Below are positions 5,450 to 28,302 of a stretch of DNA of 64,000 nt, one piece after another. The translations under genes were made by a program, and so were the position numbers. The number at the start of each line of letters is the position of its first letter. Positions within the stretch are counted from its first letter, which is position 1. This DNA comes from Escherichia phage vB_EcoM_KWBSE43-6: the sequence record NC_048186.1; one strand, written 5' to 3'. The notes beneath the pieces are model-generated. The model saw only the letters and a list, made by a program, of their open reading frames with translations. It had not been told where the DNA came from and searched no databases.

Positions 5450-7417
5450 ATGTCTATACCAAAATTTTTAGATTTCATAAAAGAGCGAGACCAGTTGGAT
5501 GAAGCGTTCAACTCCGCTCCTTATGAACTCACGATGGGCAAGAAAAATGCCGGGGACGTTTTCTTCACCTTCATCGACGAAGATGATAAAGAATACCGTA
5601 TCCAGTTCTATACCCCACAAGGTCTGGGTAAAAACGTCCGCCAGGTCTTCATCGGCCAGAAACGTGGTTCAGTTTATCCTGATGCCATCGCACGTTTCAA
5701 GAACCCGATGCGCGTTATCGCCAGCATGATCGAAGCCACCAAGCAATTCATGGCGACACCTCTGGGCAAGACTATCGATGGCTATGCCGTCAACTTCTCT
5801 AAGAAAGCGCTGGATCGTGGTATGACCCTGATCCCGAAAATCATTCGTCAATCCGGCCTCAAACAGAAACTGAACGTCATGGATCTGACCTACGCGCCTG
5901 TCCCTGACCGTGGTTACGTTTGGCTTGTCAAGAAAGGTAAAGACCCGGCCCAGGTATTTGACGGTCCGAAGATGCAGGGTATCACCTGGGACGATCCAGA
6001 CAAAGTCGGTGACGTTCCTCCTGAGCAGCCTGAACAGAATGTGTCGTCCCCGGCATCAATAAAGAACGGTGTCGCTCAGCATATGACGTCTCAAGACATG
6101 GATAATCATCCATTCCGCCGGAAAGTTCTGTCTATGATCGACGCGGCTGTTCAGAAAGAAGGCATCGCGACGCCGGGGGGTTCCAAAGGTTTCTACAAAT
6201 TCACGAATGGCGGCACTTTCCGTGTATACTTCGACAGAGTCCAGAACGATACATTTTTTGGTTCATTGGCCACGGATGCGGGTTTAGTGGAAATCAAATC
6301 CCCGTTCAATGCTGATTATGTGGCTGGTGATTTCTTATCAGCTATCCGGAAAGCTGCTGCCGCACGTCGAGATAAAAGTTGGGACGTGATGGTTGACGAA
6401 TACAAAAATATTCTGAAAGCCCCTGTTACCAAAACCGATACCACCGCGGTCGGTAATGCAATATTTATCGATGGGTTCAAAATTATTTCGGCTCTGGCCC
6501 GCAAATCGGATTTCATCGTTTTAAATCTTGACGTATATGATCCCAACGGGAATCAGGTCAATCTTCCGATAACGGTTAGATCAATTGACGTTGATGAAAA
6601 TAAACCGAAGGATTTGAAATCTTTATTCAACACATCAGTGAAAAATGCGTTGGAAGTTGCTAAACGTAGCAGTGATTTCTCAAACCCAAATCCGAATTCA
6701 AATTCCAACGGGCCTGATCTCACTACAGACCGTTGGCGGGCTTTATCGAATGCTTTCTTTAAAGTCAAAGATATCCATGGGGTCGCCAGCCGCACATCGA
6801 CTTATGGGGGCATTGTATTCGGCGGGAAGGGTGCTGTGGTTGTCACGATGAACCGGGGCGTCCGTGTTCAAGATGATCCCGTGTTTGTTACGGTCAAAGC
6901 TGTATCTGAACTCGGCCCTAAAGGGCAAGATATTGGCAAGCCAATCGTTATCCGTAATATCGACATAACGAAGCCGTCCAAATTAACTCCCCAAATCCAA
7001 GCAGCAGTTGACCAATTAGCGCCACTGGTAAAACCCAACGGTAGAAAAACTGCGGAAGAGCTGGCGGCATATGGTGAAAGCATAAGGGAATCAGCACCTT
7101 CAACCCGTGATATCGATTGGGAAGTTTATGCAAGCCGTGATGGTGAAACCATGGCTGTCGGTTGGACTCTGACTTTCCGTCGTAATACTTCTGAGGGTGC
7201 ATATCTGGAATACAAAGGTCAGATCGACCGTGCGAACCAGTATCTCAAATCTGTTTATGATGATGCCAAATCGAAAGGCTATATCCCGTCAGAGCCTCGG
7301 TATGCCACTCTGGAAATGGCCAAACAAGCTGACGAAATTACCTTCCGAAACGAGGGGAGCGCTTACAGCGAATACGAGCAGTCCCTCGGTGGCCGAATGG
7401 AAATCAGTATCAGTTAA
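5450..7417 (+). CDS. Large hypothetical protein (655 aa)
   Basis: Long uninterrupted ORF with AGGAG RBS; no motif confidently recognised; ends at terminator. Confidence 0.55.
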   Translation: MSIPKFLDFIKERDQLDEAFNSAPYELTMGKKNAGDVFFTFIDEDDKEYRIQFYTPQGLGKNVRQVFIGQKRGSVYPDAIARFKNPMRVIASMIEATKQFMATPLGKTIDGYAVNFSKKALDRGMTLIPKIIRQSGLKQKLNVMDLTYAPVPDRGYVWLVKKGKDPAQVFDGPKMQGITWDDPDKVGDVPPEQPEQNVSSPASIKNGVAQHMTSQDMDNHPFRRKVLSMIDAAVQKEGIATPGGSKGFYKFTNGGTFRVYFDRVQNDTFFGSLATDAGLVEIKSPFNADYVAGDFLSAIRKAAAARRDKSWDVMVDEYKNILKAPVTKTDTTAVGNAIFIDGFKIISALARKSDFIVLNLDVYDPNGNQVNLPITVRSIDVDENKPKDLKSLFNTSVKNALEVAKRSSDFSNPNPNSNSNGPDLTTDRWRALSNAFFKVKDIHGVASRTSTYGGIVFGGKGAVVVTMNRGVRVQDDPVFVTVKAVSELGPKGQDIGKPIVIRNIDITKPSKLTPQIQAAVDQLAPLVKPNGRKTAEELAAYGESIRESAPSTRDIDWEVYASRDGETMAVGWTLTFRRNTSEGAYLEYKGQIDRANQYLKSVYDDAKSKGYIPSEPRYATLEMAKQADEITFRNEGSAYSEYEQSLGGRMEISIS

Positions 7418-7422
7418 CCAAT

Positions 7423-7440
7423 AAGCCCCTTCGGGGGCTT
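7423..7440 (+). terminator. Intrinsic terminator (AAGCCCC TTCG GGGGCTT)
   Basis: GC stem, TTCG loop; immediately abuts late-promoter motif. Confidence 0.55.
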
Positions 7441-7447
7441 ATAAATA
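7440..7447 (+). promoter_or_regulatory. T4-type late promoter motif TATAAATA
   Basis: Exact TATAAATA 25 nt upstream of ATG 7472, GAGGAG RBS between. Confidence 0.45.
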
Positions 7448-7471: not shown

Positions 7472-8038
7472 ATGAAATCTTTTATCCAATATTTTAACGA
7501 ACAAGCCCAGCAACCGATGACCCATGCCGGGGTACAGGGCAAAAGCGTTACCATCAAAAAGCAAGCTGACGGCACTCAGTGGTGCTCCGGTACTGTTACC
7601 CAGATCACTCCAGACAACGCCGCCGACACCTATAATCTGGAACTGACTGACGGCAACACTGTGAAAACGGTTTTGACCCCTGATCAGGTTCACGCTGTTT
7701 CTCAAGGTCGGGAAGTTGTTTCTGTACACGGTGGGTTTGAATTCTTCTTTGGTAAATCGCCGGACGTTGGCCAGGTTACTGAAGCATATGCTCAGGAACT
7801 CGCCAATATGGACAAAATGATCGGTAAGGCGCTGGGCGTCGGTACATCTCGCAAGAGCGGGCGTACCGAGTTTGAATATTCGGGCATCCCCGGTATCGGC
7901 AAATCTGTTTCTATCGACTTCGGTGGCGAAGACGACCCGTATGTGATCGTTACTATGGGCGGGAAGCAACAGGACATCAGCAAAGGTAAAACGTTGGCTG
8001 TTGATATTGCCAAGTACCTGGGTGTCAAGCCTGTCTAA
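7472..8038 (+). CDS. Hypothetical late protein (188 aa)
   Basis: ORF preceded by late promoter motif and strong RBS. Confidence 0.55.
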   Translation: MKSFIQYFNEQAQQPMTHAGVQGKSVTIKKQADGTQWCSGTVTQITPDNAADTYNLELTDGNTVKTVLTPDQVHAVSQGREVVSVHGGFEFFFGKSPDVGQVTEAYAQELANMDKMIGKALGVGTSRKSGRTEFEYSGIPGIGKSVSIDFGGEDDPYVIVTMGGKQQDISKGKTLAVDIAKYLGVKPV

Positions 8039-8049
8039 GGGGGGTTGTA

Positions 8050-8477
8050 TGAGAGGGTTCCAGGACTTCTTGACAGAAGCCAAGCAAGTTGGTTGGCGTT
8101 TGGCCAAGACGGAATACACGTGCTCCCTTGTGTACGATAGCAAAGGTCCGAGCTATTCAATCTATCAAGGTAAGACGCCCGGTGTGTTCTATGGCCACAA
8201 ATCCCCTAGTGGTTCGGCCATCAAAGGCGACCCACAGGAGTTGGCCAAGAAGTTGAATCTTCCCCCTATCCCAGAAGATCTGCTTAGATCATTCCTGGAA
8301 GGGGTTAAGAAGCTGAAAACTGAAGCAAGCATTGACTATCAAGAAATTGGCGACCGTAAATTCAGACGAAAAGATGGTTCTTGGATAGAACTGATTCCGG
8401 CTGATGAGCACGGTGAATTACCACCAGCCACGATAAAGATCAGCCCAGAAATGGCTAAAGACCTGGGCCTTGGTTAA
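8050..8477 (+). CDS. Hypothetical protein
   Basis: ORF starting MRGFQDF; start chosen at ATG 8050. Confidence 0.4.
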
Positions 8478-8480
8478 CCA

Positions 8481-8515
8481 AAATCCCCCTAAATACAGGG
8501 GGATTTCTTTTTCTG
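8481..8515 (+). terminator. Intrinsic terminator (AAATCCCCC...GGGGGATTT + T-run)
   Basis: 9-bp GC-rich stem followed by CTTTTTCT. Confidence 0.6.
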
Positions 8516-8526
8516 AGGACACTAAA

Positions 8527-8880
8527 ATGGTCAATGCAAGTGCATTTATCAACCGTGGTCTGCTGGCGATAGCACACACCCATGCTCTCCACTTCGTCAC
8601 ACATTCATATTCGAAACATAAGGCGCTCGGGGAGTTCTATGGGGACCTCGAGGACTTGCTCGATACCTTCACCGAAGCATACATCGGCGCGGGTGGTGTA
8701 TACGCGCCAGGATTTGAGAACACCAAGTTGTTTAATCCAGACCCGATCCAATATATCCAGAGCATCGTTATCGACGTCGACGCCATTTATCGGCAGTGCG
8801 ATTCTCATCTGCAAAATACATTGGATGAAATCAAAACCCTGTGTTTTCAGACTCTTTATAAACTGAAGCAACTGGCGTAG
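8527..8880 (+). CDS. Hypothetical protein (helical; weak resemblance to ferritin/Dps-like four-helix proteins)
   Basis: ORF with GAGGA RBS; His-rich helix HTHALHFVTHSYSKH; assignment weak. Confidence 0.35.
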   Translation: MVNASAFINRGLLAIAHTHALHFVTHSYSKHKALGEFYGDLEDLLDTFTEAYIGAGGVYAPGFENTKLFNPDPIQYIQSIVIDVDAIYRQCDSHLQNTLDEIKTLCFQTLYKLKQLA

Positions 8881-8936
8881 TCTATAAATCATAGCGTGAG
8901 TATCATACGGGAATATTTCCAACAAGGACTCACGCT

Positions 8937-9431
8937 ATGACATGCATATCTGTTCCTCATTATATCATTGCCTTCAATGAACAGGATATCGGAAAGACTC
9001 CATTGGTTTTTATGGAGTCACAACTCCATATTAATAAGTTCGTTAAGTTTTTACTCGGTGGTTGTCATATTTACAAGAAAACCAAGCATTTTGCCTCTAT
9101 GAATATCATTTCCGTATCTGATCCATATGTGATAAATGAGTTCAATAGCCTCCCGATAAGATGTCTGACTCTTCCTGACGTTAAAAAATGCGAAGATTTC
9201 GTGAATGCACACAAGAATGAGAATGTACGGGATGCGATTCCGGATTATGAAAAGCTAATCCAACAGGCTTATCCTGATTTGGATTCCCACATGGATGAAA
9301 GAAAGGGGTTATTGTGTATCCGTATTTGGGCTATTGATATTGAAAGTGTGGATTACAGTTCACAGAAATTATTGTTTACAAAAGAAGCGGACGCCTTGAG
9401 TGCCGTTGAATTATTCCGGAGCGCAATGTAA
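8937..9431 (+). CDS. Hypothetical protein (AT-rich island)
   Basis: 164 aa ORF, visibly lower GC than flanks. Confidence 0.4.
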   Translation: MTCISVPHYIIAFNEQDIGKTPLVFMESQLHINKFVKFLLGGCHIYKKTKHFASMNIISVSDPYVINEFNSLPIRCLTLPDVKKCEDFVNAHKNENVRDAIPDYEKLIQQAYPDLDSHMDERKGLLCIRIWAIDIESVDYSSQKLLFTKEADALSAVELFRSAM

Positions 9432-10039
9432 TGGGCAAGATCTTCGTTCCAACTCATTTAGAAGGCTGTCAGATTTCAGCCAAATATCTTCACAAGCAGA
9501 TGAATTGCGGTGCCGTATTTGTCGAACCGAATCCTCATACCAATTCTGAATCCCCTGATGCAATCGGTTTCCGCCCCGATGGGTGCAGTATTTTGATCGA
9601 GGTCAAAGTCAGCCGGGATGATTTCCGAGCAGATGCTAAGAAGCCTCATCGTATCAATCCTGAGCAGGGGATGGGCAGCTATCGTTTTTATGCATGCCCT
9701 GAGGGAGTCATCCGGATCGAAGATCTACCACCAAAGTGGGGGTTGTTCTATTTCACGCCTCGAAAATCATTGAAGGCTATCCATGTCCCGGACATGCAGA
9801 TATCTTCCCTGTATTCTCCCCAGCACTATCTGAATATGATAGCCCGCCGAAGCCCGAATGGCAAGATGCCTCCTTATCTCCTCCATTATCAAAAGATGGT
9901 GGAAGACTTCGGCCATGTCGTAAAGAACACCGTCGCTGAACACAATATCCTCTATGGGGCTTGGCGCCAGCTCTGTATTGCTCAAACCCGTGGTGTGGCG
10001 TATACTGTCAATGAGGTATTCCAGAGGCCCGCGATTTAA
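9431..10039 (+). CDS. Putative PD-(D/E)xK-fold nuclease
   Basis: 202 aa; motif ESPDAIGF ... ILIEVKVS (D ... E-x-K); overlaps upstream stop. Confidence 0.4.
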   Translation: MGKIFVPTHLEGCQISAKYLHKQMNCGAVFVEPNPHTNSESPDAIGFRPDGCSILIEVKVSRDDFRADAKKPHRINPEQGMGSYRFYACPEGVIRIEDLPPKWGLFYFTPRKSLKAIHVPDMQISSLYSPQHYLNMIARRSPNGKMPPYLLHYQKMVEDFGHVVKNTVAEHNILYGAWRQLCIAQTRGVAYTVNEVFQRPAI

Positions 10040-10049
10040 GAGGTGTACT

Positions 10050-10325
10050 ATGTCATTAGCAGCATACAACAAAGAATTTTCAGAAATAAATTATGACTTC
10101 TTGTTTGCGAGTGAGCGCCGATTTGTACAGGCGAAAGAATATTTGGAAACCCATGGTATGGAATCCAGATATGAAAACACATTGAACATGAAAGCGGCCA
10201 TGGCTGTGACTGAACTTGGGGCTGACAGTTATGAAGCCAAAGCATATTCTCGTCTTACGCATTATGATCAGAACATGGTAGAAGAATATAAATCTATCCT
10301 TTTCCGGACCGGGTGGGGTAAATGA
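10050..10325 (+). CDS. Hypothetical protein
   Basis: ORF starting MSLAAYNKEF. Confidence 0.4.
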   Translation: MSLAAYNKEFSEINYDFLFASERRFVQAKEYLETHGMESRYENTLNMKAAMAVTELGADSYEAKAYSRLTHYDQNMVEEYKSILFRTGWGK

Positions 10326-11386
10326 AATTTCTTGACGAGCAATTCATAAATTACCTGGCACCGCGCCTGGAACGTTTCAGCTGGGAACGTGTTGGCGCGG
10401 TTGCAAAGTTCCGTTGCCCTCTCTGTGGTGACTCCAAAAAGAGCACGTCTAAGCGCCGTGGGCATTTCTTCTATGACCATGATGACGATGTCTATCGGTT
10501 CAAGTGCCACAACTGTAATGAGATGAGCGGTTGGGCCTTTGAGTTCTGGTTGAAGAAATTTGATGACCGTCTGTACAGTGAGTACAGCATGGAGAAGTTT
10601 AAGGTCATGGGGGATACCCGCGCCCGCCCGGTACAGAAACTGGCACCCTTGAAGAAACTGACACAGACGGCGCGTATCGGTCAACAAGTGGCGAAGCGGG
10701 ATGAGGACCACCTCGGCAATATGATCCGACTAGATCTTCTTGACCCAACACATTTTGCTCGCCAATATGTGGAAGGCAGGGGAATGCCGGAGAGCGCTCT
10801 CTCTTTGTTATATTTCAGTGAGAACTTCCGGAAAGATCTTCTCAATTTCGAGACTGATCCAGAGAAGCAGAAGAAGATCCCTGATGACCCCAGATTGGTT
10901 ATCCCCTTCTGGACTCAGGATGGTCGAATGAAGATTGTCCAAGGGCGCGCATTTGGTGATGACCTCCCAGAAGGGGTGTTGCGGTATGCAACTGTCAAAC
11001 CGCGCAATGAAGACACGAAGGTCTATGGCGAAGAACGCATTTTGATGAACCGGGTGAAGTTAGTAGTTGAAGGGCCGCTGGATAGTCTCTTCTTACCAAA
11101 TTGCCTGGCGACGGCAGATGCTGATCTATTGAGCGCCAAAGGCGACATCTATGTTCCCGACAACCAATATCGAAACGCCCAGGTGTGTGACGGTATCCAG
11201 AAAATGATTGACAAGGGCGTCAAGGTCATTTTGTTCCCGCCAGAGATACGTTGGAAGGATATCAACGATATGGTGAATCCGAACAAAGGAAACATCCCGA
11301 TACGTGACCTTCTGAAGATTATGGCCGACAATGTCTACCAGGGGCTTGCGGCTTCCTTACGATTTGCCGATTTGAGGAAAGTGTGA
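10322..11386 (+). CDS. DNA primase (T4 gp61-like): zinc-ribbon + TOPRIM
   Basis: 354 aa; RCPLCGDSKKS...FKCHNCN zinc ribbon; PRLVIPFW and VEGPLDSLF match T4 gp61 blocks. Confidence 0.8.
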   Translation: MKFLDEQFINYLAPRLERFSWERVGAVAKFRCPLCGDSKKSTSKRRGHFFYDHDDDVYRFKCHNCNEMSGWAFEFWLKKFDDRLYSEYSMEKFKVMGDTRARPVQKLAPLKKLTQTARIGQQVAKRDEDHLGNMIRLDLLDPTHFARQYVEGRGMPESALSLLYFSENFRKDLLNFETDPEKQKKIPDDPRLVIPFWTQDGRMKIVQGRAFGDDLPEGVLRYATVKPRNEDTKVYGEERILMNRVKLVVEGPLDSLFLPNCLATADADLLSAKGDIYVPDNQYRNAQVCDGIQKMIDKGVKVILFPPEIRWKDINDMVNPNKGNIPIRDLLKIMADNVYQGLAASLRFADLRKV

Positions 11387-23002: not shown

Positions 23003-23031
23003 AATGTATCTCCACGGTATATTGTACAGAT

Positions 23032-23039
23032 ATTTATAG
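23032..23039 (-). promoter_or_regulatory. T4-type late promoter motif TATAAATA
   Basis: Exact motif on - strand 30 nt upstream of ATG 23002. Confidence 0.45.
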
Positions 23040-28259: not shown

Positions 28260-28294
28260 GATGAGGACTCCACTTAAATAATAGATCTGAAGGT

Positions 28295-28302
28295 ATTTAT
28301 AG
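28295..28302 (-). promoter_or_regulatory. T4-type late promoter motif TATAAATA
   Basis: Exact motif on - strand about 35 nt upstream of proposed GTG start. Confidence 0.45.

Follow-up and report, generated by a model that had tools for sequence, protein, structure and literature searches.

The overlapping open reading frames ORF1 and ORF2 are two genes with different histories: ORF1 is AT-rich and optional, whereas ORF2 has the normal composition of its surroundings and belongs to the core. Taken together, the evidence makes it reasonably probable that ORF2 encodes an endonuclease of the phage replication module and that ORF1 is an optional accessory gene gated by an RNA hairpin. None of the results on either gene overturns current knowledge. 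The placement of ORF2 near MmcB, combined with its fixed primase partner, nevertheless yields a concrete hypothesis for a core gene of therapy phages of Klebsiella and Salmonella, and the ORF1 slot with its hairpin lends itself, as a small natural system, to the study of how accessory genes turn over and how translation is gated.

Locus and composition

The window analysed here, a 64,000-nucleotide stretch taken as a whole, is assigned by sequence to the lineage of Klebsiella phages in the genus Taipeivirus of the family Ackermannviridae. Over positions 8400-10400 the window shares 98.4% identity with Klebsiella phage phi1_175010 and 91-97% with cp18, May, KP6 and others. The genes of the locus and the ribosome-binding site of ORF2 are as follows.

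8527-8880, plus strand: DUF5856 gene (PF19174, E = 9.6e-28)
8937-9431, plus strand: ORF1, 164 aa, an AT-rich optional orphan gene
9418-9421, plus strand: GGAG, Shine-Dalgarno sequence of ORF2, within the 3' end of ORF1
9431-10039, plus strand: ORF2, 202 aa, predicted MmcB-like PD-(D/E)xK nuclease-fold protein and core Ackermannviridae gene
10050-10325, plus strand: 91-aa ORF (phrog_22447; GC 0.40), between ORF2 and the primase
10322-11386, plus strand: gp61-type DNA primase (phrog_47, E = 4.6e-74), conserved 3' neighbour of ORF2

The initial annotation had described the two overlapping ORFs as an AT-rich two-gene island. Both exist at the coordinates given, with one base in common between the stop codon of ORF1 and the start codon of ORF2 (sequence TAATG), but only the first is unusual in composition. 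ORF1 has a GC content of 38.0% (GC3 0.40) against a window mean of 46.2%, which corresponds to z = -2.3 and places it in the lowest 0.7% of 495-nt windows; it is also polymorphic. ORF2, by contrast, has a GC content of 48.9% (GC3 0.53), which exceeds the window mean (81st percentile) and matches the primase (49.8%). Taken together, the 1103 nt are unremarkable (GC 44.1%, z = -0.85). When the composition is examined in GC windows, ORF1 is deviant and ORF2 is not, and the proposed island shrinks to a single gene.

The DUF5856 gene, which carries the PHROGs label 'starvation-inducible transcriptional regulator', forms the conserved 5' boundary of the ORF1 slot in the loci for which upstream sequence is available. 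The exception is CRW-SP2, in which a reverse-strand gene lies between DUF5856 and ORF1. On the other side, the pair had been placed directly 5' of the primase; the placement is correct, except that the 91-aa ORF intervenes in this phage. A second variable slot separates ORF2 from the primase. It holds the 91-aa ORF here and in phi1_175010, May and T751; in KP6, vB_KpnM-20 and PhiSH19 it is vacant and ORF2 directly adjoins the primase. In Trex_ER12 it is occupied instead by a 223-aa HNH/NUMOD3 homing endonuclease (GC 0.36), and an annotated homing endonuclease is also found there in several Salmonella phages. With two variable slots around ORF2, the core nuclease gene thus has an indel hotspot on each side.

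A strong terminator-like hairpin (8481-8506, AAATCCCCCTAAATACAGGGGGATTT followed by CTTTTT) lies between a 142-aa gene and the DUF5856 gene, and suggests that a transcription unit may end just before the block formed by DUF5856, ORF1, ORF2 and the primase. At the starts of ORF1 and ORF2, a scan for sigma-70 promoters and for intrinsic terminators yielded no more than expected from shuffled sequence, and an Rfam scan of 8400-10400 detected no known RNA family.

ORF2 and its predicted nuclease fold

In tblastn searches, ORF2 matched 646 phage records, 353 of them over its full length. Identity is 99-100% in Klebsiella Taipeivirus, including phages without ORF1, ∼70% in Salmonella Kuttervirus, 63-64% in Shigella phage Ag3 and in Dickeya phages, 55% in Serratia phage phiMAM1 and 38% in Vibrio myophages. 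The gene occupies the same locus in every relative, and a gp61-type primase is its neighbour in every locus inspected from Klebsiella, Salmonella, Enterobacter and Vibrio phages (KP6, vB_KpnM-20, PhiSH19, EspM4VN, CRW-SP2, Vibrio D533 and metagenomic contigs). In the simplest arrangement, the ORF2 stop codon overlaps the start of the primase. Comparison with phage May gives a dN/dS of 0.032. As judged by these comparisons, ORF2 is a core gene of the Ackermannviridae replication module. The synteny with the primase could reflect common expression timing rather than common function.

The residues and the motif on which the nuclease assignment of ORF2 is based are listed below.

9524-9526, plus strand: E32, conserved catalytic candidate
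9557-9559, plus strand: D43, conserved catalytic candidate
9599-9601, plus strand: E57, conserved catalytic candidate
9605-9607, plus strand: K59, conserved catalytic candidate
9611-9652, plus strand: conserved motif SRxDFxxDxxKxxR, 3' of the catalytic candidates

A D...E-x-K motif had been read in ORF2, and P42-D43 (9554-9559) and E57-x-K59 (9599-9607) are present just as described. None of these four residues varies among 18 homologues, the most distant at 37% identity, and D43, E57 and K59 do not change in a further 56, more distant members of the family either. E32 and E40 show little or no variation among close and distant homologues alike. An AF2 model built on the 18 homologues (pLDDT 86.3, pTM 0.84) shows the canonical element order of the PD-(D/E)xK core fold, alpha-beta-beta-beta-alpha-beta; D43 opens strand 2, and E57-x-K59 lies within strand 3. 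The model, the conservation of the motif and a profile match to the structure 3DNX all support the nuclease fold that had been proposed for ORF2.

Against the Pfam MmcB-like family (PF06319), ORF2 scores 12.3 bits (E = 0.14), which is below the gathering threshold of 22 bits, and it has no match in NCBIfam or PADLOC. In PHROGs it matches phrog_631 (unknown function) and, more weakly, phrog_5429 ('DNA repair protein'), and a Foldseek comparison of the ORF2 model with viral models (BFVD) returned matches named 'MmcB family DNA repair protein'. When 1.84 billion representatives of clusters at 50% identity were searched with a profile, 5122 relatives came up at E <= 1e-3; the part common to them, residues ∼8-120, is the nuclease core. 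When 56 diverse family members were compared with Pfam, they were covered by no family, with weak matches to MmcB-like in 3 of the 56 and to Hjc in 4 (best E = 1.3e-3). The profile of these 56 members matched the sequence of 3DNX with E = 2.6e-5 over the extended motif D..iE.K.sRaDF.aD.K, and a profile of the close homologues found nothing among PDB sequences even at E <= 10. The closest solved structure to ORF2 is 3DNX, and the ExK-SRxDFxxDxK motif is common to both. The ORF2 family is thus a large phage and prophage group without a curated model, sister to MmcB-like.

In the model, ORF2 consists of a PD-(D/E)xK core of the MmcB-like type followed by a family-specific helical C-terminal extension. 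This extension of ∼80 residues sets ORF2 apart from MmcB-like proteins (PF06319; 3DNX, SPO1766; Caulobacter MmcB), which do not carry it. Caulobacter MmcB is an SOS-induced PD-(D/E)xK endonuclease implicated in resistance to mitomycin C and cisplatin (PMC9578287), and its gene is an SOS-regulated bacterial one, whereas ORF2 is a phage gene beside a primase. The catalytic domains of the Type II/IIS enzymes PaqCI, SdaI, NgoMIV and FokI and the nuclease domains of Can2/Card1 are 7-12% identical to ORF2; unlike these restriction enzymes and Can2/Card1, ORF2 has no recognition domain, methyltransferase partner or CARF sensor. Archaeal Hjc-type Holliday junction resolvases (PF01870) fall in the same superfamily as ORF2 and are small single-domain nucleases too.

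Members of the ORF2 family also occur in other settings. In Vibrio phage MAR10 a member follows the DNA polymerase, primase/helicase and SNF2 helicase, in Acinetobacter phage HFM1 one is flanked by a DEAD-box helicase and a VRR-NUC gene, and in Stx phages one is found within the cIII-kil-gam-bet-exo-Ea22 operon. All outside contexts examined are DNA replication or recombination modules. By DNA search, the Stx-phage homologue is present in 931 of 5426 complete E. coli genomes, and 249 of its 1299 matching places in E. coli are on plasmids. PGAP labels the Stx-prophage homologue 'hypothetical protein', while pharokka, loosely, calls it a 'DNA repair protein'. In a Stx1a phage (locus L011, 3992-4360) the homologue is only 122 aa long and its C-terminal part is no longer family-like; a truncation or frameshift in the Stx-prophage homologue may be the reason.

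The fold, the motif, the conservation and the replication contexts together favour a replication, recombination or repair endonuclease. In its most likely role, ORF2 would be a metal-dependent DNA endonuclease that acts on replication, recombination or repair intermediates in the course of T4-like, recombination-dependent phage replication. It would be expressed together with the gp61-type primase, and in the ancestral arrangement it directly adjoins the start of that gene. We infer the catalytic activity and the substrate solely from the modelled fold and the genomic context. The replication set of Taipeivirus is T4-like, with UvsX, UvsY, gp46/47, gp32, gp41, gp59, helicases, ligase and RNase H. 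No Holliday junction or EndoVII-type resolvase is annotated in the near-identical phi1_175010 genome. A local tblastn search with T4 gp49 (EndoVII) gave no significant match, which is only indicative since the query sequence was an approximate one.

ORF1 and the hairpin in its leader

The distribution of ORF1 is much narrower than that of ORF2. By tblastn it was found in 24 phage records, namely 21 Klebsiella Taipeivirus records, Enterobacter phage EspM4VN (two records, 48% identity in this search) and Salmonella phage CRW-SP2 (25%). Among 5.8 billion proteins, single-sequence and profile searches recovered only ∼9 clusters, all on Ackermannviridae-type contigs or short fragments. A 201-nt empty-site probe gave a contiguous match in 27 records and a split match in 21. 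The slot is therefore filled in 21 of 48 close relatives (∼44%), and the other 27 carry a 53-nt spacer, which a 541-nt ORF1 cassette exactly replaces from the DUF5856 stop region to the ORF2 ATG. No flanking repeats were found at the cassette. The presence/absence variation suspected for the whole region is thus real for ORF1 but does not extend to ORF2, which is found in every relative.

In 12 of 12 loci examined, from three genera, the gene order is DUF5856, ORF1, ORF2, primase, and in each of the twelve the stop codon of ORF1 overlaps or abuts the start of ORF2. Because its stop overlaps the ORF2 start, ORF1 would pass ribosomes on to ORF2. Compared with the May allele, ORF1 has a dN/dS of 0.235 at a dS of 0.62 (42 synonymous and 52 non-synonymous differences), and by this measure it is a real protein-coding gene under purifying selection. 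It evolves much faster than its neighbours, the identities of ORF1 and ORF2 being 73% and 99% with May and 51% and 64% with EspM4VN. Nucleotide identity across ORF1 is 74-87% between flanks that are 100% identical, a drop which indicates that ORF1 alleles are exchanged by recombination in the flanks. In the two other lineages in which composition was measured, the ORF1 homologues are AT-richer than their own loci (GC 0.459 versus 0.509 in EspM4VN and 0.386 versus 0.455 in CRW-SP2).

ORF1 matches phrog_30076 (unknown function), and neither single sequences nor a nine-member profile found a match in Pfam, NCBIfam, PADLOC or PDB sequences. The AF2 model, built from a shallow alignment, is unusable (pLDDT 38). 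Invariant residues include C3, H51, S54, N56, D62, Y104, Y112, D134 and D139, and the pI is 5.8. From its evolutionary behaviour, our guess is that ORF1 most likely encodes a dispensable host-interaction or counter-defence accessory protein; a modulator of ORF2 is less likely. We also considered a decayed homing endonuclease and rejected it, as BLASTP against the local HNH gene and other slot occupants showed no similarity.

Upstream of ORF1, the leader contains the following elements.

8883-8890, plus strand: TATAAATC, 7/8 match to the T4-type late promoter TATAAATA
8889-8940, plus strand: predicted RNA hairpin, arms 8889-8901 and 8928-8940, 13 perfect bp, 26-nt loop
8924-8928, plus strand: AAGGA, Shine-Dalgarno sequence of ORF1, at the loop/stem junction
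8937-8939, plus strand: start codon of ORF1, inside the 3' arm of the hairpin

The 91-nt stretch 8870-8960 has an MFE of -25.6 kcal/mol (z = -3.1 versus shuffles), and besides the hairpin the 64 kb contain only one other perfect close inverted repeat of at least 13 nt. In six distinct leaders, of the Taipeivirus and Agtrevirus types, 96% of stem cells pair, as compared to 31-44% in slid controls. Covariation over this sample of only six distinct sequences comprises two compensatory pairs (A-U to G-C and C-G to U-A), and in two further pairs the sole changes are to G-U wobbles, an indication of an RNA structure on the plus strand. The hairpin is absent from the leaders of the CRW-SP2/L014 clade. 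Because the conserved hairpin pairs the start codon, translation of ORF1 is probably gated, and might, for instance, take place only on transcripts that start inside the hairpin or under conditions that melt it.

The T4 genes e, soc, 49 and I-TevI have start codons that are sequestered by hairpins in early transcripts. The ORF1 leader resembles them in having a stable, covarying hairpin that pairs the AUG, with the late-promoter-like TATAAATC at its 5' edge, where it overlaps the first two bases of the hairpin. A late transcript from TATAAATC would be without most of the 5' arm, so that ORF1 would be gated in T4 style; this use of the promoter candidate is speculative and drawn by analogy. Unlike in the T4 hairpin genes, the promoter match is only 7/8, and Agtrevirus-type leaders do not conserve it. 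For ViI-like phages no late promoter has been established by experiment (PMC3184105), and the TATAAATA consensus is of T4 type. Exact TATAAATA occurs at three sites in the window versus 1.65 expected, which is not a statistical enrichment, and each of the three lies ∼24-37 nt 5' of a gene start. One such match, at 7440-7447, is 5' of the gene at 7472-8038. Exact CTATAAATA is found on the minus strand at 23031-23038 and 28294-28301, ∼30 and 37 nt 5' of minus-strand gene starts; the genes behind it have good Shine-Dalgarno sequences and lie in the baseplate/tail region. By sequence, these CTATAAATA sites are likely T4-type late promoters.

Alternative readings and neighbouring variable genes

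Several other accounts of ORF2 and ORF1 have to be set against a replication-module endonuclease accompanied by an optional, hairpin-gated gene. ORF2 might break down host DNA, which is unmodified and contains thymine, and leave the genome of the phage intact, as a functional analogue of T4 EndoII/EndoIV, which we regard as unlikely but worth taking seriously. ViI-like phages are reported to carry hmdU (hydroxymethyl-dU-derived bases) in place of thymine (PMC3184105), so a nuclease could tell host from phage DNA. ORF2 is core in this phage family, has a predicted restriction-endonuclease fold, and is a basic protein (∼23 kDa, pI 9.07), so that it plausibly binds DNA. The destruction of host DNA nevertheless fits poorly because close homologues sit in temperate Stx prophages, as well as in siphophages, within replication/recombination operons. 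The closest structural relative of ORF2 is moreover a repair-type protein and not a modification-sensing enzyme, and no domain that reads DNA modifications was detected in ORF2. In a more elaborate proposal, ORF1 founds an Ackermannviridae-specific family that is physically and functionally tied to the nuclease (for instance re-targeting or restraining ORF2, or shielding it from an inhibitor made by the host). The hairpin would time its synthesis by masking the start codon until it is opened by late transcripts or by a trans-acting factor, and ORF2 would be the branch-processing nuclease that ViI-like phages otherwise lack, in place of T4 EndoVII; we hold this to be rather improbable.

A functional pair, with ORF1 as the inhibitor, antitoxin or specificity partner of ORF2, or the two as a toxin-like module, is in our view decidedly improbable. 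ORF1 is always directly 5' of ORF2, with the overlapping or abutting codons seen in all twelve loci of three genera, and the layout is like that of toxin-antitoxin operons. However, an ORF2 that is 99-100% identical or orthologous persists without ORF1 in 27 of the 48 close relatives and in nearly all other members of the Ackermannviridae, so ORF2 needs neither an inhibitor nor a partner, and the obligate co-occurrence expected of a toxin-antitoxin or immunity pair is not what is found. PADLOC matches neither protein, the two genes evolve at very different rates, and the toxin-like module suggested in the initial annotation is not upheld. Its other suggestion, a mobile nuclease cassette, fares worse still, and we give hardly any weight to the region being a selfish element of the homing-endonuclease kind. 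The locus is an insertion hotspot, with the HNH/NUMOD3 enzyme of Trex_ER12 and the homing endonucleases of several Salmonella phages in the ORF2-primase slot, and ORF1 has the high AT content and the polymorphism typical of homing endonuclease genes. Yet ORF2 is a core gene at a fixed position with a dN/dS of 0.03, and neither ORF contains HNH, GIY-YIG, LAGLIDADG or NUMOD motifs. ORF1 is unlike the local homing endonuclease and replaces a spacer, with no target gene interrupted.

Three consecutive genes 5' of the locus, at 5450-7417, 7472-8038 and 8049-8477, have an N-terminal motif in common (MSIPKFLDFIKE, MKSFIQYFNEQA and MRGFQDFLTEAK), and the slot genes that T751 and CRW-SP2 carry on the reverse strand have it as well (MKTFHDFLTEAK and MKKFMDFLNEA). 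The motif resembles MKTYQEFIAE, the T4 capsid-targeting sequence of internal head proteins. By analogy, the motif-bearing genes may encode hypervariable, capsid-packaged proteins that are injected with the DNA. A family of ∼200-aa genes on the opposite strand (locus L005, 1611-2207, and locus L007, 1819-2427, both minus strand) has no Pfam match, and its members in T751 and CRW-SP2 are 54% identical. The slot taken by this family varies, lying between a 188-aa gene and DUF5856 in T751 and between DUF5856 and ORF1 in CRW-SP2.
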